Below, one piece after another: positions 1 through 35,993 of a stretch of 41,535 nucleotides of DNA. How positions within the stretch are numbered: position 1 is the stretch's first letter; each line of letters starts with the position of its first letter. The notes under the pieces are model-generated. The model worked only from the letters and a program-made list of their open reading frames with translations, had not been told where the DNA came from and did not search any database. A program made the translations under genes and the position numbers. Source of the DNA: a virus (Duplodnaviria; Heunggongvirae; Uroviricota; Caudoviricetes); IMG/VR virus record IMGVR_UViG_2531839448_000006. One strand, 5' to 3'.

Positions 1-774
1 TTACAACTTAAAGAGTTTCGCTTGCCCTGGATTAACAGCTTCGACGTAGTTTTTGACCCCTATTCTGTGCGGCTCATAATTGCTTGAATAGAAATCAATC
101 AGGAAGTCACTCATTTTCTGAGATGTGACTTTCATAACTCCCTTACTCAAAGTTAAATTAAACACGCTAATCTTTGACGATGGTGCCTGAGTTTTACTCA
201 TGTTGGCTTGATAACCAGATTTGCGCATTGCCACTAGTGCTTCGTCGTAAGCCGCTTGTAATTGGGCCAAATCGTTTGACGAGATGATCACATCATCCAT
301 AAACACACTTAGCTTGAGATCATGATGTTTGTTCAATCGGCGTAGTAAGCTACCAAAATAACTTTTATCTAAGCAGAGGGTTGCAAGTATTGGAGATTGA
401 ACAAAACCAAAAGGGAGGACATGCTTATGTGGACTATGGGACAAGTTTCTTACAGTTGAAAATGTTGAGATTTCCCGCGCTTGAGAATAGGTGAAGTAGC
501 TCTTTAGATCACGGGTGATACGACTACGGCTCGTTGACTGAAAAAATTGTTTAATATCAACAACGGCAAAAAAATCACTTTTTAAGTGTAATCTGGCAGC
601 TTTAAGATGCCCACCAGTTCTTAGATGGTAAAAATAGAGTGGCGGAATCCACTTGTTTCTGACAGCCTGAAGTATCTTCCCTCCGACTTTACGTGCCTCA
701 ACGCTTGGGACATAAACCCAAACCCCGGGCTTAATCTCAAATTTATCTTCCCACCTTTGAACTTCTATTGTCAT
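1..774 (-). CDS. Reverse transcriptase-domain protein, compact (257 aa)
   Basis: Translation shows RT motif A (FFAVVDIKQFF), motif B (LPFGFVQSPILATL) and motif C (FMDD, DD codons near 292-297). ATG at 772-774 with an in-frame stop one codon upstream; stop codon at 1-3, so 257 aa is full length in this sequence. Motif spacing resembles retron-type RTs but no VTG motif seen. Confidence 0.75.
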   Translation of the reverse strand: MTIEVQRWEDKFEIKPGVWVYVPSVEARKVGGKILQAVRNKWIPPLYFYHLRTGGHLKAARLHLKSDFFAVVDIKQFFQSTSRSRITRDLKSYFTYSQAREISTFSTVRNLSHSPHKHVLPFGFVQSPILATLCLDKSYFGSLLRRLNKHHDLKLSVFMDDVIISSNDLAQLQAAYDEALVAMRKSGYQANMSKTQAPSSKISVFNLTLSKGVMKVTSQKMSDFLIDFYSSNYEPHRIGVKNYVEAVNPGQAKLFKL

Positions 775-916
775 GAGTTAAATTGCTGTAGTTGAAGGCC
801 ATGTTAAGAACGGCGTAAACCGCACCAACTAAGCCAACAAACGCGGTTGCGCATTTGAGCATAGCGGTGATCAGTTCAACACGCGCCTTAACTAAGCCAA
901 GTTCGTTTGTATCCAT
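743..916 (-). CDS. Small hydrophobic protein (about 57 aa) immediately upstream of and overlapping the RT gene
   Basis: ORF-track frame 743..931; internal ATG at 914-916 is preceded by GGAGG at 7-nt spacing. Product contains one long hydrophobic stretch (LITAMLKCATAFVGLVGAVYAVLNMAF). Overlaps RT start by 32 nt. Could alternatively be non-coding (ncRNA region). Confidence 0.35.
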   Translation of the reverse strand: MDTNELGLVKARVELITAMLKCATAFVGLVGAVYAVLNMAFNYSNLTHDNRSSKVGR

Positions 917-1099
917 AACTTGTTCCTCCATAGATACCTGACGTCTCTTAGCGCAAGCGCATGGCCCTAACTAAATAAAAAATAACAACCAGTTAGCCCA
1001 GAAAGCTTAACAAGTCGGCGTCCGATTACATGGCAATCAGGTAATCGGTCCGCAGTCGCAAAGCGACAAACTACATATCTACGGAGTGGGGATAAATCC

Positions 1100-2438
1100 C
1101 ATAAGCGCTAACTTAAGGGTTGTGGTATTACGCCTGATATGATTTAACGTGCCGATGAATTACTCTCACGATAACTGGTCAGCAATTCTGGCCCATATTG
1201 GTAAGCCCGAAGAACTGGATACTTCGGCACGTAATGCCGGGGCTCTAACCCGCCGCCGCGAAATTCGTGATGCTGCAACTCTGCTACGTCTGGGGCTGGC
1301 TTACGGCCCCGGGGGGATGTCATTACGTGAAGTCACTGCATGGGCTCAGCTCCATGACGTTGCAACATTATCTGACGTGGCTCTCCTGAAGCGGCTGCGG
1401 AATGCCGCCGACTGGTTTGGCATACTTGCCGCACAAACACTTGCTGTACGCGCCGCAGTTACGGGTTGTACAAGCGGAAAGAGATTGCGTCTTGTCGATG
1501 GAACAGCAATCAGTGCGCCCGGGGGCGGCAGCGCTGAATGGCGACTACATATGGGATATGATCCTCATACCTGTCAGTTCACTGATTTTGAGCTAACCGA
1601 CAGCAGAGACGCTGAACGGCTGGACCGATTTGCGCAAACGGCAGACGAGATACGCATTGCTGACCGGGGATTCGGTTCGCGTCCCGAATGTATCCGCTCA
1701 CTTGCTTTTGGAGAAGCTGATTATATCGTCCGGGTTCACTGGCGAGGATTGCGCTGGTTAACTGCAGAAGGAATGCGCTTTGACATGATGGGTTTTCTGC
1801 GCGGGCTGGATTGCGGTAAGAACGGTGAAACCACTGTAATGATAGGCAATTCAGGTAATAAAAAAGCCGGAGCTCCCTTTCCGGCACGTCTCATTGCCGT
1901 ATCACTTCCTCCCGAAAAAGCATTAATCAGTAAAACCCGACTGCTCAGCGAGAATCGTCGAAAAGGACGAGTAGTTCAGGCGGAAACGCTGGAAGCAGCG
2001 GGCCATGTGCTATTGCTAACATCATTACCGGAAGATGAATATTCAGCAGAGCAAGTGGCTGATTGTTACCGTCTGCGATGGCAAATTGAACTGGCTTTTA
2101 AGCGGCTCAAAAGTTTGCTGCACCTGGATGCTTTGCGTGCAAAGGAACCTGAACTCGCGAAAGCGTGGATATTTGCTAATCTACTCGCCGCATTTTTAAT
2201 TGACGACATAATCCAGCCATCGCTGGATTTCCCCCCCAGAAGTGCCGGATCCGAAAAGAAGAACTAACTCGTTGTGGAGAATAACAAAAATGGTCATCTG
2301 GAGCTTACAGGTGGCCATTCGTGGGACAGTATCCCTGACAGCCTACAAAACGCAATTGAAGAACGCGAGGCATCGTCTTAACGAGGCACCGAGGCGTCGC
2401 ATTCTTCAGATGGTTCAACCCTTAAGTTAGCGCTTATG
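1100..2438 (+). mobile_element. IS186 (IS4 family) insertion sequence, intact
   Basis: Perfect 23-bp terminal inverted repeats CATAAGCGCTAACTTAAGGGTTG at 1100-1122 and 2416-2438 (reverse complement). Flanking 10-bp direct repeat GGATAAATCC at 1090-1099 and 2439-2448 (target-site duplication). Element length about 1.34 kb, single transposase ORF. Confidence 0.9.
1155..2267 (+). CDS. insL: IS186 transposase
   Basis: 372-aa ORF (track 1149..2267, GTG at 1149; ATG at 1155) recognised from memory as the IS186/IS4-family transposase (MNYSHDNWSAILAHIGKPEEL...). Confidence 0.9.
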   Translation: MNYSHDNWSAILAHIGKPEELDTSARNAGALTRRREIRDAATLLRLGLAYGPGGMSLREVTAWAQLHDVATLSDVALLKRLRNAADWFGILAAQTLAVRAAVTGCTSGKRLRLVDGTAISAPGGGSAEWRLHMGYDPHTCQFTDFELTDSRDAERLDRFAQTADEIRIADRGFGSRPECIRSLAFGEADYIVRVHWRGLRWLTAEGMRFDMMGFLRGLDCGKNGETTVMIGNSGNKKAGAPFPARLIAVSLPPEKALISKTRLLSENRRKGRVVQAETLEAAGHVLLLTSLPEDEYSAEQVADCYRLRWQIELAFKRLKSLLHLDALRAKEPELAKAWIFANLLAAFLIDDIIQPSLDFPPRSAGSEKKN

Positions 2439-2526
2439 GGATAAATCCCCGCTAACGTCAGGCATTGTTAATTTAACCTCAACTTATAGAAAAGTATAGT
2501 TTTAAATCATGTAGTTATGTCGCCAT

Positions 2527-2745
2527 TTAAATCGGCAAACCCACCTGTTTAAATTTATGAGGATGCGGCTGAACCGGATTTGACTCTTTTGGCGTTGCAA
2601 TCGAACGAACAAAAGTTTCATGGGTAACAAAAGTATGGCTGCAGTTAATGTTCTGGCACTGGTTGTAACGCTCTTTGGTCAATGAAGATACCTGAAAACT
2701 GCTGCGAGTATGGGCGGCACTTCCACACAGTGGGCAAATCATCAT
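2527..2745 (-). CDS. ogr: Late gene transcriptional activator Ogr (zinc-finger)
   Basis: CPLCGSAAH...C..C zinc-finger pattern and close similarity to P2 Ogr (recalled); 72 aa if started at ATG 2743-2745; position after gene D as in P2. Confidence 0.85.
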   Translation of the reverse strand: MMICPLCGSAAHTRSSFQVSSLTKERYNQCQNINCSHTFVTHETFVRSIATPKESNPVQPHPHKFKQVGLPI

Positions 2746-2835
2746 TTTTCGAGTTCTCCCCATTTTTGCTAAATTCACAATAATGATATCGCATTATTCC
2801 ATTTTTCAAACTTAAAAGTTCTCCATTGTAAAGAA

Positions 2836-3936
2836 TCATTCCATTTCGAGATCATCAACCTTCACTTCAAGCTCAAGACTGGTCGTAAAACCATTATCCG
2901 GGCTGACGGTATGTGTCAGAGTCGTAATGGTCCATTCCGCATCATCTATCGGCTGTTTAAAGCCACTGACTTTCACTGGCATTTCCGTGTAGAGATCTGC
3001 CCGCCCTTCCGCCAGTTGTAGCGAGAATGACGCAACGCCGCGTTGCAGGCGTTCCCACTGCATTTTCGCTGCCCGTTCGGCGTTACTCCGATTGGCATAG
3101 GTGCGATTGAGTACCAGCACGTTTTCATCCGTACCCACCAGGTAATCGCCCTGCTTCGCTTCCGGCTCTTTCTTCTGATTCTTCGTTCTGCGCTTACGCT
3201 TCACCGTAGTGCTTTCTTTCTTCGCGGGTTCGCGGGTATGCAACCAGCTGGCAATTACGCCCGTGTAGGCTCCGCGATCTGCCAGGGTAAAGCGGTGACT
3301 GTCGCCGTCCTTGCGTGTGATAGTGATCACCGGCAGTGGTTTACCGCTGGCGCTTTTACCCTGTCCCTGCCGGATGAATAACAGATTGCCATTTTTCACC
3401 GACGCAATAGCACCGTACTGGCGCGCCAGCCGCATCAGAAAACTGCCGTCACTCTCATTGGTCTGGTCTATATGTTCCACGGGCTTATCCGACAGGTCTT
3501 TACCCAGTGCCATCTTCAGCTTATGCCGCGAGGCTATTTCCTTCACCACTTCCCCAACGGTGGTCTTGTGCCACGACTTTTCACGGCGGGTATTCAGCGT
3601 TTCACGAAAATCAGCACTTCGCGCCCGGATAGTCAGGCGGTCCGGTGCGCCAGTGTGTTCAATCTCGTCCACCGTGAATGCCCCTTTAGGGAAAAGCGGC
3701 TGCCCCTTCCAGCCCAGCGCCAGCGTAATGACCGCACCACGGCGCGGCAGCACGATTTTTCCGTCGGCGTCGTCCAGCTCCAGATCAAGCTGGTCCGCTT
3801 CAAAGCCCCGATTGTCCGTCAGAGTCAAACTCATCAGGCGGTTATCCAGCACAGTGTTGATATCCCTGCCCTCAATACTGATGCTGAATGCGGGAGTTTT
3901 GTTGCCTTTGTTAAGCAGTTCAGAGCTGAAATTCAC
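2836..3936 (-). CDS. D: Tail protein D
   Basis: 366-aa product similar to P2 gpD (recalled); position between U and ogr. Confidence 0.85.
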   Translation of the reverse strand: MNFSSELLNKGNKTPAFSISIEGRDINTVLDNRLMSLTLTDNRGFEADQLDLELDDADGKIVLPRRGAVITLALGWKGQPLFPKGAFTVDEIEHTGAPDRLTIRARSADFRETLNTRREKSWHKTTVGEVVKEIASRHKLKMALGKDLSDKPVEHIDQTNESDGSFLMRLARQYGAIASVKNGNLLFIRQGQGKSASGKPLPVITITRKDGDSHRFTLADRGAYTGVIASWLHTREPAKKESTTVKRKRRTKNQKKEPEAKQGDYLVGTDENVLVLNRTYANRSNAERAAKMQWERLQRGVASFSLQLAEGRADLYTEMPVKVSGFKQPIDDAEWTITTLTHTVSPDNGFTTSLELEVKVDDLEME

Positions 3937-4418: not shown

Positions 4419-7400
4419 GCGTCGTATCCCCCCTGATCGCTGTAGTTACTCCTGGCTTTTGCCTTCAGCCTGCGTTCACGTTCATCAAGCTGGCGTGCCA
4501 CCTCCCGCGCAATATCCTGCGCACTTTGTCCTGGCTGCGTCTGAATGATGATCTGCGTCGGTGCCTCAATCCGGTGAACGGGCGGCACAGTGGCTGCACG
4601 ACTCACCATCGCTTCGCCGCCTTTCGCGGGAAGTGCCAAAGGATGCAACGGTGGAAGCTCTGCAGGCGCGGCAGCAACGCCCATCATTCCGGCAACAACG
4701 GCAGCCAGTGCAGCTGTATTTCTCCGGCTGGTCACATTTGCCGGGCCGTTAACAATTTCCGGCCCGTTTTCACCGACGATGCCAAACTGCCCGCGCGGGA
4801 TATAGCCGCCGCTGTCATACATCCCCGCAAAGCCATATCCCCATGACGGAAAACCACCCGATGGCATCATCACTTTACCGTCTGCATTCACCGTCGCAGG
4901 TTGCTGACGCGTCACTCTTTCCGGCAATTTCGCCTTTGCAGCCTCTTTACTGACAATGCCGAGTTTCTCCAGCAACCAGGAAACGCCGGATTTCAGGGAG
5001 TCCAGCGGATGCATGACCATATTCAGCCCTTCCGCCAGTGCCTCCCCGAATCGTCGCCCCATTGCCGCTGCGCTCTGCAGTTCGGCAGAGGTCGACTTAA
5101 CGGGCGTCAGCAGATCAGTAAACCAGCCCCACAACGCCTGCACTTTGTCGCCAATCCACTGAAACACAGGCTTAAGTGGTTCGAATGCTGCACTGATGGG
5201 ACCTGCCGCCGCTTTGAATCCTTCCACCACACCAGCGAGAAATGCGGTGATGGGTTGCCAGTATTTCCAGACAACCAGCGCCACGCCCGCCAGTGCAGTA
5301 ACCACAAGACCTATCGGACTGAGCAGAGCACCTAACAGACCCGATATGGCATACAGGGCAACGCGCAGCATCGCCAGCGGACCGGATGCCAGTACTCGCA
5401 GCACCGCGCCTGCGGCAGCCAGTCCACCGCGTAGTGCTGCCAGTGGATTCATAAACATCACAGCAACAGCACGTAAACCGGATAATCCAGACCGCAACAG
5501 TGCAACCGGCACACCTACTACAGTTTTCAGGACATTCCCCGTCAGTGATGCCGTGCGGCGCAAAGACGACAACGGCGCAGTAAGTAAACCCGCTGCGTTG
5601 CCCGATGAAGCAAGCCCGCGTCGCAGCAGTGCCAGTGGAGCGCCAGCTAACCAGGACAACGCGCTGCTGGTTCGTGTTACTGCTGCCGTAACGGAAGGTA
5701 ACGTTTTGATACCCAGCACAGAGAATCCCAGACGGATGACTGCCAGCGGCCCCAGCACTGCAGCCAGCGCCACCACTAAGGTGCCGAGGCCTACGGTAAC
5801 CGCAGCCACAACAGCCGCTACTTTCATCAGTGTGCCTGTCAGTTCCGGGTTAGCTTCCACCCAGCGGCGCAACGCCCCCGTGATGCTTTTCACCGTGTAC
5901 AGAATATCCATCAGCGGCTGGCGCAGCGTTTCGCCCAGGCTGCTGAAGGTGTTCTGCGCTCCGGTTTTGACCAGTAACCACTGAGCAGAAAGTGAGTCCT
6001 TATTGATGTCGGATTCTTTCTGCATGGAGCCGAGCGCATCATTGCCCGCTGTCAGTTTTAACTGACGCTGCAGTTCCGGCAGGTTGTTTGCCAGTTTCGC
6101 CGCGTCATCGCCAAACTCTTTACCAAACAACATGGTCATGGCAGACAGACGCTTGTCCTGCGGCAGTGCGTTCACCTTCTCCAGCACACGCTGGATAGTT
6201 CCCATCGCATCCTTCGTCATCTGCTTTTCAATCACTTCAGGATTGAGTTTCAGCAGATTCATCCCTTCAAAGAAACTCTTGCTCTGCATGGTGGCAATGG
6301 ACAATTCACGCACCATCGCGTTTGCTGCACTGGCTGCAACCTCCGGCGCAGCGCCCAGTGTCAGGAAGGTGGAACCCAGCACCGCCGCTTTACGATAATC
6401 CAGACGGTCAGCCACACCGCCCAGACGTTGCATCACATCAATGATGTCCGCCCCTTTCGACATGGCGTTATCATCCAGATAGTTCAGCGCATCGCCGAGC
6501 TGTTCAATATTGCGGGTTGGTATTTTGTAGAGCTGGGCGATTTTCCCCAGACTTTCTGACAGTTCATCCGCTGGCAGCTCAAAGGCTGTTGCCGCCTTTG
6601 CTGCCGTACTGGCGAAGGCCAGCAGGTCACGTTTCTGGTCTTCCCAGCTGTCGTCAGGGTTTGCGACGTTCATGCGCGCACCACCTTCAACCAGTGCAGC
6701 GAAGTCCACCGCACCGTTTTCCATCGGCAACTGTTCGCTGGCAGCCTTGATGGCATCCTGCATTTCATAAAAACGTGCAGTGCGGTTGCCATTATCGTCA
6801 CGCAGACCATTGACCTGCTTTGCCACACCTTTCATGGCATCTTCCATGCTGGTATAGCTTTTTACTGCCGCCATCACTGGCGCACCCATTGCCAGCCCTG
6901 CAGCCGTGGTAGTGGCTCCGGCTCCTGCGATGCGATCGCGCACTTCAAGCCGTCTTGAGTATTGTTCTCTGGCAGCGTTCATCCGTGCCTGTTGTTCACC
7001 CAGACGTTTAAGTGCTTTTTGCTGGCCCTCCAGTGCCTGCCTTGTTTCTTCAGCATTTTTCTTAAGTTCTCGCTGGGCACTACTGAGTTGTCTGGTATCA
7101 ATCCCTGATTCTTTAAGTGCCTGACGTTGTCTCTGGACCGCCCCCAACAAGCCGTTATAGGTCTGCTGAAGTTCCTGTACTCGTGTTTTGGCCTGACTGA
7201 ATAACTTTGCCTGCGCGGCGGTTGGCCTGTTAGTGGCAGCAAATTGTGTGGCGAGTTTTGCCGCCTCTTCGCGGGCTGCGTTCAGGTTGTTGGCTGTTAT
7301 GGCTAGTTGCGAGCGCGTCTTGCGAAATTCATCAATTCTGCCAGCCTGCTTATTCAGTTCTTTGAGGCTGTTTCGGGTATTCTGAATTGCGCCAGCCAGC

Positions 7401-8500: not shown

Positions 8501-9673
8501 TTACGCGCTGACCTGGCTGGAGAAATTCACCAGGTACTGATCGGTGATGCGCTGACGCAGCATCAGGTTTTCAAGTGGCGGCACTGGTGTGTAGTCGTAG
8601 TCGATGGTGAGTTTTCCAGCTTTCAGAGTGTCTTTGTCGTTCACCGACTCATCCAGCCAGCAATCGCCACCAATGAGATAGCCCTGACTGATCAGGCTGC
8701 GCATTTTGGCGCGGATACCTTCGATAATGTCGCGGGCCAGCGACGGATTCAGCGGTTTGTCGACCGCCCACATTGGCGCTTCTGCCATCGTGTCCATCAG
8801 CACCTGCGCCGTGCGGGTGTAGTTTTCGAAGGCAAAGAGTGGGTCATCACTCAGGCAGCGGGAACCCCAGAAGCGAAAGCCGTCTTTGCGGATAAGTGTG
8901 GTAACATCGTTCTGGTTAAGCAGTCCCGCATCAGTTGCCGGGTCCTGCAGATCCCAGAACACATCAGCAGAAATTCCGGTGACACCGTTCACGCCCACGT
9001 TGGACAGGCTTTTGTGCCACCCTGTCTGCTCATCAATTTTGGCACGCAGACCAAGCGCACGGGCGGTGGCATATGCCGTTGCGTCGGCATTCAGCACCGT
9101 GTCCCAGCCAGTAAAGTCAGGCCAGATCAGCATCCCTTCACGCTGACTGAAGTTTTCACGGTAAGTGATCGCCTCCTGCACCGTCTTGCAGCCATACGCT
9201 GACAGGTAAGCAAACCCACGCAGGCTTTGCGCCACGCCCAGCAACTCAGTAGCAACGGCTTTATTATCGTGCCCCGGCACGCCGAGAATGCGCGGTTTAA
9301 CACCGAGCTGTGACTGGGCAGATAACAGGGCTTTCATACCAGTTTTTTTACCTTCAGCAGTCACTGCGCCGATGATATTGGTCGTGGTTTCTTCTTCCGT
9401 TTCACCCTGCGGCACACGCACAACAACGGTCACGGGTTTTGCCTGGTCAGCGATGGCATCCAGCGAACGGGCCAGCGTACCGGATTCACCCGCCTTACCG
9501 CTGGCAGTAAGCACATCAGTGATCAGCACGGGTTTATTAAGAGGGAACATTTTTGCATCGGCATCATCGCCCGTGCAGACCATGCCCACGATGGCGGTGC
9601 TCACCGTGGTAATGGATCGAGTGCCTTCGTTGACTTCAACAACGCGCACTCCGTGGTGGTAATCCTGAGCCAT
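8501..9673 (-). CDS. FI: Tail sheath protein FI
   Basis: 390 aa, N-terminus [19 protein letters not shown] closely resembles P2 gpFI (recalled). Confidence 0.9.
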
Positions 9674-23544: not shown

Positions 23545-24066
23545 TCAGTTAATCAGTTTATTTAATGACTTAGACCACTTCTGTCCCAAATCATCAATAT
23601 CAAAATCACCATCTCGCTGCTGCCATTTAAAAACTAAGGCTATAAGTTCACTCTTGAGGATTCTTTTATAATAATCCTTAGATTTTAATTGCTCAAGTAT
23701 ATGTTCACCAACCTCAGCAAGCTTTCTATGATTTAATTCTGACAGATCTCGATGCAAATGGTTAACTGATTTATACAAAGTATTTCCTTCAGTACGAGAA
23801 ATATCAATACCTTTATCTTCAAACCATTGTGAATCAAGCCAAACCAAATCTATCGTAGCTGGCTCTGACATCGTGGTGGCAAGGGCAACAATAATTTTCT
23901 CTACCGATTCATCTTGAAAATCGATAGAGTCAGAAACCCAAACTGACAAGGTGTTATTAGAGGTCCTTGTGCAACCTGTTATCGCGTCTGCGGATATATT
24001 GTCAGGTGCTCTACCTTTATTACATTCCCATTTACTATGGGATATTTTACGCAATAAATATGTCAT
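23545..24066 (-). CDS. Hypothetical protein, third gene of AT-rich three-gene accessory operon
   Basis: 173-aa ORF; ATG overlaps upstream stop (TAATG) indicating translational coupling; no motif recognisable by eye; AT-rich versus prophage core. Confidence 0.6.
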   Translation of the reverse strand: MTYLLRKISHSKWECNKGRAPDNISADAITGCTRTSNNTLSVWVSDSIDFQDESVEKIIVALATTMSEPATIDLVWLDSQWFEDKGIDISRTEGNTLYKSVNHLHRDLSELNHRKLAEVGEHILEQLKSKDYYKRILKSELIALVFKWQQRDGDFDIDDLGQKWSKSLNKLIN

Positions 24067-24713
24067 TATAGACTTCTCAAATATCCTATAACTGCTTCTT
24101 TATATTCTTCCACCCAATCAGCATCAAATTTCCTCATTCTTTCAAGGACTGGAATAAATGATTTTTCCCCCCAAGACTCAACTGCACGGATCGCTGCCTC
24201 AAATATAAGTTCATTCTCAAGAGAACAAACTCCCATAATCATAGCGTCAGCTTTATTACCTAACCATTCATATTCAATAGTCGATGCAAAATTAATGAAG
24301 TTCTTTACATGTTGATCATTCATTCTGTACAATTGTACCCATGTCCTTTGAAAGGACTCTTGGAATAAATCCTGATTTTTATCATACAAGAACTCCATGT
24401 AAATCTGTGTCTTGCTTATCTCGCCTTCAATGTAATCTTCTGAACATGTTAACTCAATTAGTCTAGAGGTACATTTTGAAACCTGAATTTCAAAGTTCTG
24501 CTTAGTTGACGAACCTTGATTTATTGACTCAGTCTCTAATTGAAAGCCACCATTTGTTTTGCTATGTGACAGCTCATTTCTTTTAATATCAGCGTAAATG
24601 ATATTGTTACCATCATAATAATCAGAAAATGCACCTATTGAACTTACCCCATTTTTAAACTTAGGTAAGCCAAAAGGCTTTTCATCACTTATTATAAAAC
24701 TATTCTTTACCAT
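24066..24713 (-). CDS. Hypothetical protein, second gene of three-gene accessory operon
   Basis: 215-aa ORF starting 10 nt after the upstream stop with GGTGA just upstream of the ATG; no recognisable motif. Confidence 0.6.
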   Translation of the reverse strand: MVKNSFIISDEKPFGLPKFKNGVSSIGAFSDYYDGNNIIYADIKRNELSHSKTNGGFQLETESINQGSSTKQNFEIQVSKCTSRLIELTCSEDYIEGEISKTQIYMEFLYDKNQDLFQESFQRTWVQLYRMNDQHVKNFINFASTIEYEWLGNKADAMIMGVCSLENELIFEAAIRAVESWGEKSFIPVLERMRKFDADWVEEYKEAVIGYLRSL

Positions 24714-24722
24714 AGCATCACC

Positions 24723-25418
24723 TTACAGAGAAGTGTAGCGTTGTAAATTATCAATAGTTTTAAGATTGTCCTGACACAATAACTCTAGCACGCGGATATA
24801 TTCATCCCAACCAAACCGCATATATCCATTTTGAGGAAGAGTATTAGTATCAGTTTCAAATAATACGCAATCACTTGGCATACCATTATTCAAAAATGGA
24901 GCTGAAATTTCAGCGCGTCTAATTGTACTAATACTATTAATTTCTTCCTGATACTCTTCAATATTTTTCCTTACAGCTATACGATTGTCCCACTCAAATG
25001 GATTAACACCTTTATAGGTAAACAAAGCATTGTAAAGCGAAAAGTAAACAGATTCATCCCCTTGATAGATACGTGAATTCAGAACAGCTATCCTATTTCC
25101 TTTTTTCATCGGAAATACGTTTTGTAGTTCCCTAGATATAGATAGAACCATTTCTGAAAACGCTTGAGGTTCCCCCCCCAAACCATTAAAAATGATTCCA
25201 TGGCTAGGAAACTCGACTCTTACTGTTTGATTGGTATCTACCATGATAAGAATTTGCTTTTTCTCACCAGTGATGGCATTAATCTCCTGACCAAAAGTAG
25301 GTACAAATCCAAATTTTCCAATCTTATCAAGCATAGATCCAATAGTTAGTGTATTTGGAACTATATCATTATTATTTGTGAAAAAATTAATCTGATGCGT
25401 CTGTTCAATCAATTTCAT
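24723..25418 (-). CDS. Hypothetical protein, first gene of three-gene accessory operon
   Basis: 231-aa ORF with strong RBS (AAGGAG, 5-nt spacer) before ATG at 25416-25418; no recognisable motif. Confidence 0.6.
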   Translation of the reverse strand: MKLIEQTHQINFFTNNNDIVPNTLTIGSMLDKIGKFGFVPTFGQEINAITGEKKQILIMVDTNQTVRVEFPSHGIIFNGLGGEPQAFSEMVLSISRELQNVFPMKKGNRIAVLNSRIYQGDESVYFSLYNALFTYKGVNPFEWDNRIAVRKNIEEYQEEINSISTIRRAEISAPFLNNGMPSDCVLFETDTNTLPQNGYMRFGWDEYIRVLELLCQDNLKTIDNLQRYTSL

Positions 25419-26374: not shown

Positions 26375-28789
26375 TTAATACAGGTTCCGCCACTGATCAT
26401 CTTCCTGCAAACGCTGGCTCCGATAGAAGATACGCAGGCCTGCTCCTGACGGAATACTGCCTCCGCGAAGGAGTAAATCGACCTCTTTCTCGCTGCCATC
26501 AAATCCTCTGGACTTCAGCTCATACACGAGCTGCAGTCGCTGATGGTCTGTAATTCGCTGTTTGTAGTCTTTACGCCGTTTCGGTTTCACCAGGCATAAC
26601 CTTGCTGCCAGTTCCCGGCGCTCTTTTTTGCTCATACTGTGCAGGTAATCGTGCAACTCCTTGTCATCCATGCTGGTAATGTCCGTTCTGGGGTCCCCAT
26701 CAGCTGATTTATCTTTCTCCTGTTGGTTCAAATTTTCAGCAAGGGGACAGTTATTGCCACGAGTCCAAGGGGCGCAAGCGCCCTGGTCGGCTGCCGCCTC
26801 CTGAACGTCAACGGCTTTACGAACCATTTTCCACTTCACTGCATGAGTGCAGATCTTGCCCTCTGCAATGGGTGACCAGATGCCATAAATACGAATACCG
26901 TGATCGCCATAGGCGGTCGGCTCTTCGTTGATTTCATAAGCGGTTCTGATGAGGTGATATTTACGGGGAACCAGTACGCCGCCCTGCTTCATGATGTAGG
27001 TGGCAAAGCAACCAGCATCAGCTGCAGCCAGAATGGCATCAAGGCGCTGGTTATCCAGTACCGGCGCACCTGCTTTTTTGTCACCCTGTTGCCTTGCCGC
27101 CTGACCAGCCAGCAATCGCAGTTCACGGTAAGCCTGACGCCCCGGAATGCCAAAGAAGCGGAATTGCTGAACACGATGCAGAGACGCCCAGGCATTAACG
27201 TATTCAGCGTTATCACGCAGAGATTTACCCGTTTCCTTGCTGATCTCGCCAGCCAGACCACGCCCGTCAATGTTCTTACTGATATATTTCGCGATGTAGC
27301 TTGTCGGCGTTCCTTTGCGCGGGTTAATCAACTCAGACTTAAAGCGCGGCCCAGTGTTATTGCCCAGCTCCTCGCGGTCTTCACGGATGGCAAACTTACG
27401 CAGTAATGCAGTGATGGCGCGGCGGTCTTTTTTGCGCATAAAACACAACAGGTGCCAGTGAACTGTACCGTCATGATGCGGCTCAGCCACCCGCACGCCA
27501 TACCAGCGCAATCCGGCTTTGTGCATCGCCTTACGAAATGCAGCAAACATGCCGACCAGATAGTCGCTGCTTTGTCTTACCGTCGAGTTTGTCCAGGTCG
27601 GGTTGGGTCTGCCGTTATTGAGCGTGGAATGGAAACGCGACGGACAGGTGATAGTGTAGAAAACGGCGCAGTCACCGCGCATTTCCGCGATAAGCTCCAG
27701 ACCTTTAACACAGGCCATCATCTCATTGCGGCGATGCGCCGGGTTGCTGCTGCTGGCGTTTACCACATCTTCCATATCCAGCGTGTCGCCGTCTTCGTTC
27801 ACCAGTTCATGAGAACGGAAAAACTCCAGCGACTTACGGCGCTGCTCACGTTTATGCATCACGGCTTCATAGCTGACATAGGGGGATGCTTTTTTGCTGA
27901 CCAGGCAGACAGCACGCAACTGCTCTTCCCGCCATTCGCAACGCATCTTCCATAATTTCCGATACCACCAGTCGGCACACAACATACGCGCCAGCGAACC
28001 CGGAATGAGTTCATAGGGCACGGGTTTACGGCGGTTTCTTTTCCGACGGAGTTGCTCAAACGCAGGCGGAATAACATCCAGACGCAGGGTTTCCGCTGCC
28101 ACCTTTTCCCATGTTTTGCGGATTTCTTCTGGCTTAACGTCATCGGTGGCATACAAATCACCACAAGCGGCATCAAGGCACATGCTCATATGCGCAGCGA
28201 CAAGGGTGGACAGGCGCTTCACCTGATCCTGACTCATTTCAGGCAGGATAAGCAGGCCATCCAGCCCTTCATGGCTTGCCATAAAGCGAAAAGAAGTGGA
28301 TAGCTGACAGTCGCGGACATGCTCCAGTCGTTCCAGACATGGCTTAATCGTCTCACGCAAATAGCGGGAATAAGCCTTTGGCCTGCCCAGGCTGCTGAAA
28401 TATTCAATACGTTGCATCAGCGGCTTGCTGATATGGGAAGGCTGGGCGTTGACGTCAGCCAGAATGACCATGTCCGGATTAAAACGCTGCTGCTCATGCG
28501 CCAGCTTTGCCCGGCTAATGAGCTTATCCTGCTCCATTTCGCGCTGGACAGGATCACGGGATTCATTAAAGAAATAACGCTCCCAGACCTGATCACTCAG
28601 TGCCTCGCGGCGCAGTTGTTCCTGCTCGTTATCGGCAGCGTACAGAGTGATCAGGTTTGAAAGTGCAGAAACCGGCGCAACTTCCGCCGGGTCCAGATAA
28701 GGGTTAATGGCCTTTTTTGGGCTGTTCCATGAGAATGCTGCGGCGACCTCGTTAAAGCCGCTGCAGTTGTTCATATCAGCATGGCTCAT
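26375..28789 (-). CDS. A: Replication initiation endonuclease A (rolling-circle initiator)
   Basis: Large ORF at the P2 gene A position; track start is TTG at 28816, first ATG at 28787-28789 overlaps the dam stop codon (ATGA). Confidence 0.8.
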
Positions 28790-29643
28790 GCACGCACTCC
28801 GTACACGGCGGAACAATCCACGCCACGCGAAGGATCAAATCCTATCCAGCAGCGCGGCCCGGCAACAGCAATGATTTCTGTTGCAGATTTACTCTCACCA
28901 GCTGCCACGCCGATGCTGCGTTTTGCCTTGATGTAGTGGTGAGTAAAATTGCGATACAGCGAACGGATCAGGGATGTGTCACTGTTAGAAATAATGACCG
29001 GATATCCTTCTGATGACCAATGTTCAAGAACAGATGCCAGGTGATACTGGTCATCTTCAGTGAAACCATCAGTGTGATAGCCGGAAAACGTACCGTCATA
29101 AGGCGGATCGCAATACACCACATCCCCCGCGTGCAACATCGCCAGCGTTTCATCGAAGCTGGCGCAGATAAACGTTGCCCGCTGGGCTTTTACTGCAAAT
29201 GCACGAATTTCTTTTTCAGGAAAATACGGATTTTTATAATTACCGTAGGGAATGTTGAAATGCCCGCTCTTGTTATAGCGACATAAACCACGGTAACCGT
29301 GACGATTGAGATACAGGAAATATATCGCTTTCATAAAATCAGTAATTTCAGTTGAGTAATTAAACTCCTGCCTTATGTTGTAATAATCCATCTCCCTGTT
29401 TGCGTTCTCAAATAAAACTCTGGCGCGAGATATAAACGATTCACAATCAGCGGCAACCTTTTTATAGAGGTTGATTAAATCAGGATTAATATCCGCAACC
29501 AGATAGCTGGGATAATCCGTCTCCATCATCACAGCACAGGAACCCGCGAAAGGTTCAACCAGTCGCGGGCCAGCAGGAAGATGTTTTTTCAGTTCGGACA
29601 TTATGGCAGTTTTATTTCCCGCCCATTTCAGGATGGTGCTCAT
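28786..29643 (-). CDS. dam: DNA adenine methyltransferase (Dam-like, N6-adenine)
   Basis: Catalytic DPPY motif ([10 protein letters not shown]) and N-terminal KWAGNK...FAGS AdoMet-binding region; ATG at 29641-29643 with GGAGG RBS. Confidence 0.85.
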
Positions 29644-29867
29644 ACAGCACCTCCGTTGTAATGTTTGCCTTTCAGCTCTGCGATTTCCTGACAGGTAATG
29701 CAAAGCTGCACACCCGGAATGGCACGGCGGCGTGCTGGCGGAATTGGCGCTTCACACTCAATGCAAAGCACGCGGGACACGCCCGGCGTTTTGGCACGGG
29801 CAGCACGGATATGGCGTTGGCGTTCTTCTTCAACGCGCTGCTGTACGAGATCCATTGCATCAGCCAT
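29640..29867 (-). CDS. TraR/DksA-family C4 zinc-finger protein
   Basis: 75 aa with CIECEAPIPPARRRAIPGVQLCITCQ four-cysteine motif; stop overlaps dam start. Confidence 0.7.
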   Translation of the reverse strand: MADAMDLVQQRVEEERQRHIRAARAKTPGVSRVLCIECEAPIPPARRRAIPGVQLCITCQEIAELKGKHYNGGAV

Positions 29868-30106
29868 TAGTGGATCTCCTGCGCTTCGTTCTGGATTGCT
29901 TCAGCAGTCACACGAAGCAGTTCTGCCGCTTCCACGTGGTTTAGCTGGCGGGATGAGATATGACACGCCAGGCTATCAAGGCGAGCTGCCATTGCTTCAG
30001 CCCTTGCCCGGCGTTCTTCCAGACGAGCCTCTGTCAGTAAAATATTAAGCCCTGCGTCAGCCGGTCCGGTTTTGGTCGAGAGGGTTTCAATATTACGCAT
30101 AATCAA
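29867..30106 (-). CDS. Hypothetical early-operon protein
   Basis: 79-aa ORF in the early operon; start of downstream gene overlaps its stop (TAATG). Confidence 0.5.
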   Translation of the reverse strand: MIMRNIETLSTKTGPADAGLNILLTEARLEERRARAEAMAARLDSLACHISSRQLNHVEAAELLRVTAEAIQNEAQEIH

Positions 30107-30167
30107 TTCTCCTGAATTTAGATAAAGGGATGCCCGGCGGGTTTACGCCATTAATTTCATTAGTTGG

Positions 30168-30509
30168 TTAATTCGGCATGGTTAGCCGTCTGGGGAATAA
30201 GCTCACCACTGCACGAAAATGATTCATTGCTTTAATCAACTCCCGCTTTTCGTCAGTGGTCAGCTCATTAATGCTGATGCTATGACGTTCAGCTGGAATT
30301 TTTGCCATAAAGAATATGGCAGCCAGTGCCCGTTTATTTTGTTCGCTATTAATATCGCGTGGATCACGCATATCTTTAATAAACCGTTCAAGCTCTGACT
30401 CAATATTCAGACCAAAAACTTTCGCCCTTAACTCCGCAATGTGATTAAGTCCATTCAGGCGTTCACCGGGGCCTAATGGAACAGTCGCCGCAGCGCCATT
30501 AATTGCCAT
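30168..30509 (-). CDS. Hypothetical early-operon protein
   Basis: 113-aa ORF co-oriented in the early operon; no recognisable motif. Confidence 0.5.
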   Translation of the reverse strand: MAINGAAATVPLGPGERLNGLNHIAELRAKVFGLNIESELERFIKDMRDPRDINSEQNKRALAAIFFMAKIPAERHSISINELTTDEKRELIKAMNHFRAVVSLFPRRLTMPN

Positions 30510-30531
30510 AATTCATATTCCCAAAACGCAA

Positions 30532-30756
30532 CTATCGCTCTTTGTTCTTACGGTAACGCTCAAGAGGAGATATATTTTTTCGTATCATCTCTTTAACCTG
30601 CTCTCCCCGTAAAAACGTCCCATCCTTTAGCGTGAAAAAGTAACTGCCATCGCCCGACAACGACGGATAACAACAGAGCAAATCATCTTCAGATACTGAA
30701 TAACTCTCCCCTCTGTAACGAAACTGATAAACCACTTCACTTTCCGCTGCATACAT
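30532..30756 (-). CDS. Hypothetical protein (overlaps the next ORF in another frame)
   Basis: 74-aa ORF; overlaps 30627..30953 by 130 nt, so one of the two is spurious or the pair is a frameshifted gene. Confidence 0.3.
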   Translation of the reverse strand: MYAAESEVVYQFRYRGESYSVSEDDLLCCYPSLSGDGSYFFTLKDGTFLRGEQVKEMIRKNISPLERYRKNKER

Positions 30757-30953
30757 TTTGACTTTCTTCGTATCCCCGTGGTCAATTCAGACAGCAATTC
30801 ATCTTGTGAACGGCACGGATGCCAGCGTTTACCATCCTCACCCATGATCCAGCCGTGACCGTAGTGCATTGCCGGGCTTTGTTTTACCAGCAGCGATGCA
30901 AATGATGGTTCTTTCGTCAGCATAAGCACCTCACAGCAAACCGAATGAAGCAC
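30627..30953 (-). CDS. Hypothetical protein (alternative start MLTKEPSF at 30923)
   Basis: 108-aa ORF immediately downstream of CII-like gene; 130-nt out-of-frame overlap with 30532..30756. Confidence 0.35.
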   Translation of the reverse strand: MLHSVCCEVLMLTKEPSFASLLVKQSPAMHYGHGWIMGEDGKRWHPCRSQDELLSELTTGIRRKSKCMQRKVKWFISFVTEGRVIQYLKMICSVVIRRCRAMAVTFSR

Positions 30954-31440
30954 CGAGGCCAGTCACGGTATCAACTGCACTCGCCATCGCAGGATTAGCC
31001 TGTAAACGGGCCTGCAATGAAACAGCAGCCAGCGCCATCAGTCGTGTTACAGAGTTAATGCTGCTGATAGCATCACGACGACCTGCACTGGTTTTTACAT
31101 CGCCAGATACCGCACCTGCAGCAACACGCCCGATCTCTGCGGTTGCACTCATGACGTAATGTGGCAGTTTCTCTTTTGCCACCTCATTAATCGGTACACA
31201 TGGCAGACAATGAATCTGTGCCAGAAAACCATCTATCAGCGTTGAGTCTTCTGTCAGATCGGTAAGCAGCCAGATTTCTGGCGCATTGAGCTGATGCGGT
31301 TGATCTGGGTTGAGTTTGTTTCGCAGTGTCTGAACATTCATTCCTGCACGTTCTGCCAGCTTCGCCATATTGTGACGTAGTGCAAAAGCTCTACAGGCTT
31401 CATCAAAATACGGATGTTTGGAAATCTTGTAATCAAACAT
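30931..31440 (-). CDS. cII: Phage 186 CII-like transcriptional activator
   Basis: 169 aa, the same length as 186 CII; N-terminal HTH-like region; GGGGG RBS; sits just inside the lytic operon after the Apl-like gene. Family assignment from memory. Confidence 0.6.
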   Translation of the reverse strand: MFDYKISKHPYFDEACRAFALRHNMAKLAERAGMNVQTLRNKLNPDQPHQLNAPEIWLLTDLTEDSTLIDGFLAQIHCLPCVPINEVAKEKLPHYVMSATAEIGRVAAGAVSGDVKTSAGRRDAISSINSVTRLMALAAVSLQARLQANPAMASAVDTVTGLGASFGLL

Positions 31441-31555
31441 GCTGCCCCCTTAGAAAGTTCCCATAATTGAACTTACTTACCAACAATGACGCGGAAGTTG
31501 GAATGTCCGAGGGATTCACGGACCTGATCAGTTTTGTACATCAGATAACGCAGAC

Positions 31556-31714
31556 TTACGCGGCCTTTGTTTTTTCTTTCTTGACCATGTACTTAGCAAG
31601 TTGACCATGGTGAATTTTTTGGTAAACAGAGCCGCGGGAAATGCCCTCCCACTCTGCGAACTCTGCAGGTGTTGCCATCTCTTTTGGTACACGAATTGAA
31701 ATATCAGTACTCAT
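31556..31714 (-). CDS. Small HTH protein, Apl/Cox/excisionase-like (first gene of lytic operon)
   Basis: Manually translated 52-aa ORF (MSTDISIRVPKEMATPAEFAEWEGISRGSVYQKIHHGQLAKYMVKKEKTKAA), below the ORF-track length cutoff; divergent from the repressor gene across a 121-bp switch region. Confidence 0.5.
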   Translation of the reverse strand: MSTDISIRVPKEMATPAEFAEWEGISRGSVYQKIHHGQLAKYMVKKEKTKAA

Positions 31715-31801
31715 AGTGCAGTATCTCTTACTTTGTGTGCGTGTTAGTTCGTTTTAGCCCGTCTCTTAAACTCTCACATCAAGAGACAAGAAAACATTAC
31801 G

Positions 31802-31816
31802 ATCTTGATTCAAGAT
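31802..31816. promoter_or_regulatory. Candidate operator palindrome in the lysis-lysogeny switch region
   Basis: Perfect 15-bp palindrome ATCTTGATTCAAGAT 20 bp upstream of the repressor ATG; a second inverted repeat GTCTCTT...AAGAGAC at 31761-31787. Confidence 0.3.
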
Positions 31817-31835
31817 TGTCAAATGGAGATTACCA

Positions 31836-32468
31836 ATGTTAAACATCAGAATGGGTTCCGATACGGGAGGTAAAGCAGCTATTGAGAGGCTGCTTGCGGC
31901 TTATGGATTCACAACTAAGCAGGCATTAAGTGAGCACCTGAATGTCTCAAAAAGCACTATGGCAAACAGAGTGTTACGTGACAGCTTTCCTGCTGACTGG
32001 ATAATTCAGTGCGCACTAGAAACCGGTGTTTCGTTGCTTTGGTTAGCTACAGGACAGGGAAGCATGAAAGCAGGATCTGAGACTGAAAAAAGATCTCATA
32101 ATGAGAACAAACAAGCAATTAAACCGTTATCTAAACTCATAACTCCATCTATTCCTAAAGGAACCTTGGAGAATGGACAACTCAGTATTGATGAAGAGAT
32201 TTTCCTAGACCACAGCATATTACCTGCAAATTATGAAGAATCGATGTTCTTAGAAACCCCTACTGATTGTTATCTCATCGATAAATCAGTTAAACAAGTC
32301 AGCAATGGATTCTGGCTTATCAATATTGATGGAATGATTATTATTGCAAAAATTATGCGGATTCCCGGCAATAAGATTGTAGTAAATCAAGATGAAGCGT
32401 CTTTCGAGTGCTCTGCTGATGATGTGGAAGTTATTGGGCGTGCAGTCAAAGTAATAAAGAGTATCTAA
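31836..32468 (+). CDS. cI: CI-like immunity repressor (186 type)
   Basis: 210 aa with N-terminal HTH (TKQALSEHLNVSKSTMANRV); no obvious S24 peptidase Ser/Lys autocleavage motif; transcribed with int. Confidence 0.7.
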   Translation: MLNIRMGSDTGGKAAIERLLAAYGFTTKQALSEHLNVSKSTMANRVLRDSFPADWIIQCALETGVSLLWLATGQGSMKAGSETEKRSHNENKQAIKPLSKLITPSIPKGTLENGQLSIDEEIFLDHSILPANYEESMFLETPTDCYLIDKSVKQVSNGFWLINIDGMIIIAKIMRIPGNKIVVNQDEASFECSADDVEVIGRAVKVIKSI

Positions 32469-32470
32469 AC

Positions 32471-33487
32471 ATGACTGTCAGAAAACAGCCAAACGGCAAA
32501 TGGTTGTGTGAGTGCTATCCCAATGGACGCAATGGCAAGCGCGTGCGTAAGCAATTTGCTACGAAAGGAGAAGCCATTGCTTTTGAAAGCTTCACAATGG
32601 AAGAAGTGAATAAAAAACCGTGGCTAGGTGAAAAGGATGATCGGCGACGCCTATCAGAATTAATTGAGCTTTGGTATTCCCTGTATGGCCAGACACTCGC
32701 AGACCCCAAGCGCCTCATGGCGAAACTTAGAATTATCTGTAATGGTCTAGGCGACCCCATCGCCTCAGAACTGACAGCCGGTGACTTTACAAAATACCGC
32801 GAAGCACGGTTAAAAGGCGACGTTCGTAACGAAGACGGCACACTAATGTCGCCAGTAAAACCACGCACGGTGAATCTTGAGCAACGTAACCTATCATCGG
32901 TTTTCGGCACATTGAAAAAACTAGGCCACTGGTCAGCACCAAATCCTCTCGCCGGGCTGCCAACATTTAAAATCGCTGAGGGGGAACTGGCGTTCCTGAC
33001 CTCGGAAGAAATTAAACGTCTGCTAGATGCCTGCGCTGATTCTCAAAACCCCAGTCTGCTTTTGATTGCAAAAATATGCCTGGCCACCGGCGCACGCTGG
33101 AGTGAAGCCGAAAACCTGCAGGGCCATCAGTTATCTAAATACCGCATCACTTATACCAAGACGAAGGGCAAGAAAAACCGCACCGTGCCGATATCTCAAG
33201 ATCTGTATGACGAACTCCCCAAGAACAGAGGGAAGCTATTCACCCCGTGCAGAAAAGCCTTTGAACGGGCAGTAAAGCGAGCTGGCATCGAGCTGCCAGA
33301 GGGCCAATGCACTCACGTGCTACGTCATACATTCGCCAGTCATTTTATGATGAATGGCGGAAACATACTGGTCCTACGCGATATTCTGGGCCATGCCGAT
33401 ATAAAAATGACGATGATTTACGCCCACTTTTCGCCGGATCATCTTGAAGATGCAGTTACTAAAAACCCTTTATGCAACTTAAGATAG
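32471..33487 (+). CDS. int: Tyrosine integrase
   Basis: 338 aa; C-terminal catalytic region with R...HxxRH...Y pattern (VLRHTFASHF...MIYAHF); position after the repressor as in P2/186. Confidence 0.9.
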   Translation: MTVRKQPNGKWLCECYPNGRNGKRVRKQFATKGEAIAFESFTMEEVNKKPWLGEKDDRRRLSELIELWYSLYGQTLADPKRLMAKLRIICNGLGDPIASELTAGDFTKYREARLKGDVRNEDGTLMSPVKPRTVNLEQRNLSSVFGTLKKLGHWSAPNPLAGLPTFKIAEGELAFLTSEEIKRLLDACADSQNPSLLLIAKICLATGARWSEAENLQGHQLSKYRITYTKTKGKKNRTVPISQDLYDELPKNRGKLFTPCRKAFERAVKRAGIELPEGQCTHVLRHTFASHFMMNGGNILVLRDILGHADIKMTMIYAHFSPDHLEDAVTKNPLCNLR

Positions 33488-33801
33488 AGTAACTTATGAA
33501 AATAAACTCAAATTATTTACAAATATAATATTCAGCAGGTTATCCATTCTTATTTAACTCTTCAGACTGAGATTAGATTTTATTTATAGAATAAGATAAT
33601 TTCATATCACAAAAAACCTGTAAGCCCTCATCTTTGTTGTATAAAAACATAAAAGATGCCATATTTAAAAAAGTAGAAAAGCATTGCAATGCAACATTAA
33701 AAATAAACCAATAAAAACCAGTCATTAGAAAGTGAAAAAAAACAAAAACATTTTTTATCAAAGCTTCAGTCTGACTACTAGTTGGACTCTGCAATTAACT
33801 A

Positions 33802-33833
33802 TCAAGATGATCAATATTTATTGATCATCTTGA
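33802..33833. repeat. Perfect 32-bp palindrome carrying two GATC sites
   Basis: TCAAGATGATCAATATTTATTGATCATCTTGA: 14-bp arms with a 4-nt centre, 33 bp downstream of the kinase-deaminase stop codon; not followed by a T-run on either strand. Confidence 0.6.
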
Positions 33834-33865
33834 AGTTGCCCTCAGGAAAGATGAGTATAATATTT

Positions 33866-35608: not shown

Positions 35609-35793
35609 TTATGAATGTAAGAATATTCAACATATTAATTATAATTTATTAACTCATTTTGTTCTAGATACTTGATGTAATGGCGGCACTTTGGCGACGG
35701 AGCATTAAAAACGCGTAAGACGAGCAAATACAACAAAACACTAACACATTGTTTTTAAATATAAATAGCTGTTTTTACTATACTAAAAATGGT

Positions 35794-35831
35794 ATGTAGG
35801 AATTTCGGACGCGGGTTCAACTCCCGCCAGC
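35794..35831 (+). other. 38-bp remnant of the tmRNA (ssrA) 3-prime end (att-site-like island boundary)
   Basis: ATGTAGGAATTTCGGACGCGGGTTCAACTCCCGCCAGC matches the 3-prime region of E. coli ssrA as I recall it, lacking the terminal TCCACCA and all upstream tmRNA sequence. Confidence 0.6.
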
Positions 35832-35984: not shown

Positions 35985-35993
35985 CGTTGATGG

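Follow-up and report, generated by a model that had tools for sequence, protein, structure and literature searches.

Type VI retrons (clade 3 of Mestre 2020; PMC7736814) combine a non-coding RNA (ncRNA), a small protein (SP), a Cro/C1 helix-turn-helix (HTH) protein and a reverse transcriptase (RT), and about 22% of the type VI entries are without a detected HTH protein (PMC7736814). Their mechanism is the subject of two bioRxiv preprints (10.1101/2025.10.22.683967 and 10.64898/2026.04.27.721009). In Retron-Vpa2, the ncRNA and the SP open reading frame (ORF) form one 'hybrid RNA' in which the toxin SP has both its ribosome-binding site (RBS) and its start codon sequestered; the HTH protein represses reverse transcription, and phage-induced multicopy single-stranded DNA (msDNA) derepresses SP translation (10.1101/2025.10.22.683967). 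In Retron-Sen3, SP is made constitutively and the HTH protein is the antitoxin, this toxin–antitoxin control being independent of RT catalysis. Here we describe a related locus at the left end of a 41,535-nucleotide stretch of viral DNA (IMG/VR record IMGVR_UViG_2531839448_000006), referred to below as the window. We consider it fairly probable that this locus is a three-part retron-like module, composed of an ncRNA of about 200 nt, a helical SP of 57 aa and an RT of 257 aa, that probably acts against phages under type VI-like control without an HTH protein. The components and the RNA pairings are established by sequence analysis; the dynamics of the mechanism are inferred by analogy with Retron-Vpa2 and Retron-Sen3.

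The reverse transcriptase and its closest relatives

The window RT matches Pfam RVT_1 with an E value of 2e-21. The canonical RT motifs named in the original prediction (FFAVVDIKQFF, LPFGFVQSP and FMDD) are present and sit in conserved or invariant columns of the family alignment. The catalytic DD and LPFGFVQSP are invariant or nearly so across the RT family, in which the catalytic motif reads Y/F-M/V-DD. Homologues are consistently about 250–265 aa long, both in a single-sequence search (72 clusters) and in a profile search (575 clusters at 90%), as are nearly all of the 284 representatives at 50% identity recovered with E≤1e-30 among 1.84 billion proteins. Hence the RT is complete and no fragment: the compact size first ascribed to it holds, and the case of a truncated remnant of a longer RT was not borne out. 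An in-frame stop does precede the ATG, as had been noted, but lies two codons upstream (TAA-CTC-ATG on the sense strand) and not one.

By sequence and by predicted fold, the RT is retron-like but falls into none of the described types. Its top PADLOC matches are all retron RT profiles, each of them weak, with RT_VI marginally best at 63 bits. RT_VI matches all 40 family members that were tested, with scores of 48–80 bits (best member, E 1.9e-24); a Rhizobiales member has RT_I-B, not RT_VI, as its best profile. The best sequence matches in the Protein Data Bank (PDB) are Ec86, Eco8, Kva2, Ec78, Ec67 and Ec83. An AlphaFold2 (AF2) model of the RT (pLDDT 95.8, pTM 0.90) gives the same picture, the 15 best Foldseek matches in the PDB all being retron RTs (Ec86, Ec83, Eco7/Ec78, Eco8 and Eco2; TM 0.66–0.76). 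These profile and fold matches support the retron-like character that had been proposed from the motifs. Compared with the Ec86 RT, it is shorter by about 45 residues at the N terminus and 25 at the C terminus.

Other classes of RT fit less well. The group II intron profile TIGR04416 reaches 23 bits, its cutoff being 300, and Rfam gives no intron RNA. We also weighed a non-retron enzyme of the defence-associated reverse transcriptase (DRT) kind, whose ncRNA would template concatemeric or homopolymeric cDNA, as in DRT2 and DRT9, and whose terminal stem would serve template jumping. Such a system would likewise pair a minimal RT with a structured ncRNA; DRT9 structures appear at Foldseek ranks 20–21, and the canonical retron signatures VTG and NAxxH are not conserved in the present family. 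However, retron RTs are closest by both sequence and fold, and the UG and DRT profiles fall far under the retron profiles (UG33, 33 bits; UG17, E 3e-15; Drt3a, 17.6 bits where the cutoff is 200), with the Abi profiles unmatched. Moreover, neither DRT2 nor DRT9 features a conserved partner ORF whose RBS is sequestered, such as is described below. We therefore regard a DRT-like system as distinctly improbable.

Of known systems, the type VI retron comes closest. Retron-Vpa2, Eco12 and Retron-Sen3 were compared by description, and a type VI locus on a Bacteroides uniformis plasmid, found with tblastn, served as the sequence calibrator. Common to type VI retrons and the window locus are the order of ncRNA, small helical protein and short RT, which is among the shortest of retron RTs, and the sequestration of the small-protein RBS by the upstream ncRNA, through the 'hybrid RNA' of Vpa2 or the basal stem of Sen3. 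Unlike type VI retrons, the module has no Cro/C1 HTH protein, and its RT is 20–30 residues shorter. Both E. coli integration sites of the cassette are without an HTH gene, and at 23 non-enterobacterial loci just 3 of 107 neighbouring ORFs match HTH_3 or HTH_31 within about 1 kb, no other family being recurrent. The catalytic motif of Vpa2 is YADD in place of Y/F-M/V-DD, and the family has VFN and AAxxH as further differences from type VI retrons. The RNAs differ too: the terminal stem of Vpa2 closes after the SP ORF, whereas here it closes before the RBS and crosses the anti-RBS helix.

One might nonetheless suppose that the family is a divergent type VI sub-lineage that lost the HTH protein, or never needed it, and works exactly as Retron-Vpa2 or Retron-Sen3. 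The shared architecture and RBS sequestration would fit, as would the type VI entries without a detected HTH protein and RT_VI ranking first among PADLOC profiles for the E. coli protein. The calibrator points the other way. A true member of the type, the B. uniformis RT, reaches 279 bits (E 9.5e-84) on RT_VI and 100–160 bits on other retron profiles, as against at most 63 bits for the window family on those other profiles, and profile–profile alignment of the two covers only a 156-residue core at 28% identity. The best match of the Rhizobiales RT to RT_I-B also speaks against membership, as does the essential role of the HTH protein in both type VI retrons studied. SP shows no similarity to the single Bacteroides type VI SP, a comparison outside which SP clusters cl2075, cl2760, cl3272 and cl3897 lie. 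We judge a type VI sub-lineage of this kind to be unlikely; with two features that define the type failing here, the module is, as far as its sequences tell, an unclassified retron-like variant. In the Bacteroides locus itself (positions 2018–3115 of our copy of plasmid pBUN2), the type VI RT is directly preceded by a 71-aa lysine-rich helical ORF, as SP precedes the window RT, a likeness that would suit the sub-lineage reading; the only nearby HTH gene is divergent and about 470 nt upstream. The canonical SP–HTH–RT order is therefore not universal in type VI.

Comparison with classical retrons gives a similar balance. The RT shares the fold of Ec86/Eco1 (type II-A), Ec78/Eco7 and Ec83 (TM 0.73–0.76), and in both cases the RT is preceded by an ncRNA with inverted repeats at its two ends and, after the 5′ arm, a conserved motif that contains G. 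In contrast to those systems, there is no large enzymatic effector, VTG is replaced, the terminal residues of Ec86 are missing, and the effector is apparently controlled at translation instead of through an RT–msDNA–effector complex. In its genomic setting, the module resembles the Abi-P2/P2-EC30 RT and Ec73 of retronphage phiR73, where a variable locus in a P2/P4-type element likewise carries an RT module as dispensable cargo. It differs from P2 cargo RTs in lying between ogr and the attachment site and not at the cos-proximal tin/old locus, in leaving Abi and UG profiles unmatched and in encoding a much smaller protein.

The small protein and the limits of the module

A small ORF overlapping the RT start had been noted, together with a strong RBS, and both stand: the Shine–Dalgarno sequence GGAGG lies at 925–929, 8 nt ahead of the ATG. 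In every relative with enough upstream sequence, an ORF of 40–70 codons with its own Shine–Dalgarno sequence precedes and overlaps the RT start. These proteins are alignable over their full length, with a basic N terminus, a (Y/H)RLV motif, helical hydrophobic or amphipathic segments and a C-terminal LL(N/G/S)MxFNY motif, which in the window reads LLNMAFNY. Moreover, SP and RT form a single reading frame in Klebsiella pneumoniae (P0036, 302 aa), Serratia, P0106 and a metagenome-assembled genome (MAG) of Kistimonas. By these comparisons SP is a genuine conserved partner of the RT.

Searches of Pfam, PADLOC, NCBIfam and PHROGs gave no match to SP, and one could take this to mean that the 57-aa ORF is untranslated and conserved for RNA structure alone. 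Part of its nucleotide sequence is indeed conserved beyond the needs of the protein, namely C(C/U)UAG at codons 6–9, a stretch able to pair with the ncRNA and containing a rare Leu codon. Against this, the reading frame, start codon and Shine–Dalgarno sequence persist from Enterobacteria through Alphaproteobacteria to a Roizmanbacteria MAG, the amino-acid motif is retained while codons vary (the third position most), and the frame is fused to that of the RT in several lineages. We therefore hold it extremely improbable that the ORF is silent. The original prediction of a membrane effector is not established: most SPs have charged residues within the hydrophobic stretch, which describes an amphipathic helical peptide rather than a clear transmembrane segment, and a transmembrane role is possible.

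In K. pneumoniae, the SP–RT fusion gene (5001–5909 in the loci retrieved) has its own ncRNA (4785–5003) and adjoins umuDC and an SRAP gene; some strains carry a second RT of 494 aa beside the fusion.

The module is carried by a P2-like prophage as cargo, placed between ogr and the attachment site at ssrA. In the uninterrupted E. coli copy (strain CV839-06; locus L001), P2-like tail genes, D and ogr are followed by about 260 nt of non-coding DNA, the small ORF, the RT, about 108 nt and ssrA. A second E. coli variant (L002), of 81% nucleotide identity, occupies another P2 integration site, adjoining ybjL, and contains SP and RT alone. The system is thus complete within the cassette, since ogr and ssrA (or ybjL) enclose only these two genes. 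Downstream partner genes, should there be any, had been placed beyond position 1 of the window; extending the sequence leftwards through complete genomes disclosed none, only the 108 nt and then ssrA. The two variants are about 97% identical across the ncRNA and the N-terminal half of SP (L001 8740–9200 against L002 6380–6840) and diverge from the middle of SP onward, with an RT amino-acid identity of just 67%. This pattern suggests a recombination breakpoint inside SP and an SP C terminus that co-varies with the RT.

The structured RNA and a possible mechanism

Upstream of SP, about 200 nt of RNA share nucleotide blocks among Gamma-, Beta- and Alphaproteobacteria and the Roizmanbacteria MAG. 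From 5′ to 3′, the order is arm A, a (G/A)NUAGG-type motif, hairpin 1 (HP1), segment B, HP2, a variable long hairpin, UUGGUU, HP3, arm A′, segment B′ with the SP Shine–Dalgarno sequence, and the SP AUG (Table 1). The motif after arm A is conserved at the position of the retron branching G, and a variable-sequence hairpin occupies the place of the long hairpin in relatives. Two of the short hairpins resemble those of an msr, and the variable one resembles an msd. The original prediction saw elements of a possible structured RNA at 932–1097. Conserved stems and a covariance model bear out that part of it, and both hairpins it named, HP2 and the long hairpin, are real elements of the ncRNA; the interval falls short, the ncRNA extending past it to a 5′ arm on the far side of an IS186 insertion.

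Two long-range helices of this RNA covary. Arms A and A′ form a perfect stem of 6–10 bp in 25 of 25 sequences while the sequence itself changes (CCUGACGU, UCCGGC, UCCCAGC, CCCUGGC, CCCCAGC, CCCUCGG and others). Cognate arms give a mean duplex energy of −14.1 kcal/mol, against −9.7 kcal/mol for non-cognate ones, and RNAalifold independently predicts the stem. In an unfitted MAFFT alignment A–A′ is 93% paired, with four of the seven pairs changing on both sides; over the whole structure, 82.8% of cells are paired as against about 38% in slid registers. The second helix covers the RBS. Its equivalent, a contiguous helix of 6–12 bp, is found in 25 of 25 relatives, for example as CUCCGUAGAUAU/GUAUCUAUGGAG in E. 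coli and elsewhere as CCUCAUCA/UGAUGAGG, CCUUAUCU/AGAUAAGG and GGUUCUUCC/GGGAGAACC, with CUCUCUGUAC/GUAUAGAGAG as the covarying pair in K. pneumoniae. Counted on the MAFFT alignment, B–B′ is 62% paired, a figure blurred by register shifts, and an alignment-free test was used instead. In that test cognate helices beat non-cognate ones, none of 20,000 permutations reaching the cognate mean. As the segments follow one another in the order A, B, A′, B′, the two helices cross, and therefore form either a pseudoknot or two alternative states.

A covariance model built from 15 beta- and gammaproteobacterial sequences finds the ncRNA in loci on which it was not trained. In intact E. coli it reports L001 8914–9117 (28.9 bits, E 1.4e-5), at the boundaries predicted by hand; it also finds the ybjL variant and K. 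michiganensis, the K. pneumoniae RNA (27.1 bits, E 3.9e-6) and two further loci (97 and 63 bits). The minimum free energy (MFE) fold of the intact E. coli RNA alone contains the same stem and hairpins (z=−3.2).

A third helix is tentative. It would join ncRNA CUAGG/UUAGUUAGG to SP codons 6–9, including the repeat TTGGCTTAGTT, and shows some covariation, with 179 of 20,000 permutations reaching the cognate mean. The 11-bp direct repeat concerned, AACTAAGCCAA at 827–837 and 890–900, is present where it was first reported and had been thought a possible part of the ncRNA; it lies instead in coding sequence, within the SP ORF, and encodes GLV twice. In its sense orientation, TTGGCTTAGTT, the repeat is complementary to ncRNA UUUAGUUAGG(CCA) (L001, about 8958–8967), which in E. 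coli and in K. michiganensis would allow 10–13 bp of pairing. Other lineages offer an analogous CUAGG/CCUAG pairing, with the same weak statistics (179/20,000). We looked by eye for a direct-repeat riboregulator of the kind put forward for Vpa2 and could not establish one.

On the model of type VI retrons, the module would most likely work as follows. A single 'hybrid' transcript would carry the ncRNA and SP, with B–B′ sequestering the RBS and leaving SP, the presumed toxic effector, untranslated. The RT would bind the msr-like hairpins, prime at the A–A′ stem and copy the msd-like region. On phage infection, build-up of cDNA or removal of the template RNA by RNase H would remodel the RNA and expose the RBS; SP would then be produced and the infected cell arrested, in the manner of abortive infection. 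The RNA could alternatively be a pure cis repressor of SP translation in an RNA-controlled toxin module, with a non-polymerising RT that serves, for instance, as a protein antitoxin or sensor. Sequestration of the RBS by B–B′ is the best-supported regulatory feature, the SP–RT fusions imply physical proximity, and control in Retron-Sen3 is independent of RT catalysis, all of which such a module would accommodate. It would not explain why at least 284 representatives keep the catalytic aspartates and every polymerase motif invariant, nor the conservation of a priming-type A–A′ stem and an msd-like hairpin, and we give it only a very slight chance.

Several observations weigh against the retron-like module with type VI-like control. 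In alignments with Ec86 and with a type VI RT, both retron signatures are missing from the family: the VTG position holds an invariant (V)FN, with F205–N206 instead of TG, and the NAxxH position holds AAxxH (A59-[A/L/I]-x-x-H63). The nucleotide directly after arm A, where a branching G would be looked for, is G in most members but A in some (L036 and L037). Rfam, searched at a permissive threshold with the window and the intact locus, returns chance-level matches only, and a sigma-70 consensus scan upstream of the ncRNA on this strand finds nothing convincing. No Shine–Dalgarno sequence of the RT's own is evident, and RT expression under SP repression is unexplained. In an AF2 model of a natural SP–RT fusion, SP is a low-confidence single helix with no docking or interface on the RT. 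Finally, what takes over the role of the HTH protein is unexplained under the proposed mechanism.

Going further, the family might represent a minimal retron lineage outside the 13 described types, with an RT of about 250 aa and no protein regulator, in which a pseudoknotted RNA couples the priming stem to RBS sequestration and reverse transcription unmasks a toxin in cis; its members are common in the prophages of K. pneumoniae, S. Typhi and E. coli. We put this forward tentatively, as a bolder proposal that we think has somewhat less than an even chance of being right.

If the retron-like reading is correct, the module would be the smallest self-contained retron-type system, at about 1.2 kb with an RT of about 250 aa, and would show that the type VI logic of a toxin mRNA fused to the RT template can work without an HTH protein. 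It would also offer a simple, testable RNA switch, as both crossing helices covary. Clinically important Enterobacteria carry the family in abundance, with one K. pneumoniae variant present in thousands of assemblies, and the weak matches to PADLOC profiles mean that defence annotation may miss it. For retron-based genome editing, so small a retron RT together with a short ncRNA could also be of interest.

Insertion, occurrence and neighbouring genes

IS186 was originally described as abutting the RT and its small ORF. It in fact interrupts the ncRNA within HP1 (GGGGAUUUAUCCCC), which we take to be a typical IS186 target. The element is flanked by a 10-bp target duplication, GGATAAATCC, at 1090–1099 and 2439–2448, and matching genomes annotate it as an IS421-family transposase. 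Deleting 1100–2448 in silico restores the uninterrupted E. coli locus exactly (1451 of 1451 bases). In the window the ncRNA is thus split, with arm A beyond the insertion and the remainder at 917–1099, and the covariance model gives a weak partial match (17.4 bits, E 0.015). The window copy is probably non-functional, because A–A′ should be unable to form and the presumed promoter by ogr is separated by 1.35 kb. B, B′ and SP are still adjacent in the window, and SP would therefore be repressed if transcribed.

Table 1. Positions of the module, the elements of its RNA and the insertion in the window
Feature	Position	Strand	Evidence or note
Compact RT gene, 257 aa (stop codon 1–3)	1–774	−	ORF; Pfam RVT_1; PADLOC; AF2; Foldseek
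SP gene, 57 aa, candidate toxic effector (32-nt overlap with RT start, 743–774)	743–916	−	Conserved ORF; fusions
B′, SP ribosome-binding region (GUAUCUAUGGAG, contains GGAG Shine–Dalgarno)	926–937	−	12-bp helix with 1075–1086
A′, 3′ arm of terminal a1/a2-like stem (ACGUCAGG)	937–944	−	Pairs with 2455–2462
HP3, conserved GCGC-N(2–3)-GCGC hairpin just 5′ of A′	951–960	−	100% paired in unfitted alignment
Conserved (C/U)UGGUU(G) motif	986–992	−	Nearly invariant alignment block
Variable long hairpin (CCGAUUAC...GUAAUCGG), at retron msd-stem position	1022–1048	−	MFE fold of intact E. coli RNA
HP2, conserved GUC(A/G)C-NNN-G(U/C)GAC hairpin, msr-like	1055–1067	−	85% paired; E. coli fold
B, anti-RBS segment (CUCCGUAGAUAU)	1075–1086	−	Pairs with 926–937
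HP1, 3′ half (GGGGAUUUAUCCCC), cut by IS186	1088–1099	−	HP1 intact in L001
IS186/IS421, 1339 bp, inside ncRNA (transposase 1149–2267)	1100–2438	+	23-bp terminal inverted repeats 1100–1122 and 2416–2438
Second target-duplication copy and HP1 5′ half	2439–2450	−	Sequence
A, 5′ arm of terminal stem (CCUGACGU)	2455–2462	−	Pairs with 937–944; covariance model span includes arm
Spacer between ogr stop and ncRNA, presumed promoter region	2463–2526	−	Inferred

Insertion at this hairpin is recurrent. Among 32 E. coli genomes with the junction, the hairpin is uninterrupted in 25, whereas in the remaining 7 IS186/IS421 sits at the same GGGGAUUUAUCCCC site, facing one way in 4 of them and the opposite way in 3; these 7 amount to a natural knock-out series. 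The recurrence, seen in the window and in loci L048 and L056, may reflect an insertion hot spot or selection for inactivation of the module. In the second of these (strain WP4-S18-ESBL-08, 27956–39077), the prophage with the same interrupted cassette is a remnant of about 12 kb, truncated by IS1 and with pseudogenised tail genes; the RT and SP ORFs are nonetheless intact.

The same 1.1-kb cassette is carried by 33 of 5426 complete E. coli genomes. Its GC content, 42% over 1–1099 against 52% for the prophage, agrees with the AT-richness noted at the outset. A protein-query search of genome contigs with the window RT returned no relatives; a degenerate DNA pattern for LPFGFVQSP did recover the family, retrieving about 35 relatives among 185,579 species genomes. 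The fused K. pneumoniae variant P0036 is indexed in 7802 collection blocks. We found no literature description of this family of RT, SP and ncRNA, and databases label the RT 'reverse transcriptase domain-containing protein' and SP 'hypothetical protein'.

Elsewhere in the window, the interval from the portal/terminase genes to replication gene A, which in P2-like phages is the variable hotspot near cos (tin/old), holds three consecutive ORFs of 173, 215 and 231 aa (23545–25418, minus strand). Neither Pfam nor PADLOC gives a match for these ORFs, and in PHROGs they match only families of unknown function (10743, 21208 and 19817), which makes them candidates for an uncharacterised cargo or defence system. 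Just outside the prophage integrase (32471–33487), a 580-aa protein (33866–35608, minus strand) matches the PADLOC dCTPase profile (dCTP deaminase, anti-phage) with 483 bits. Beyond it lie an Ag43/AIDA-type autotransporter (36349–39378) and a DUF5507/DUF5508 protein (40162–41535), an arrangement that resembles a CP4-57-like island.

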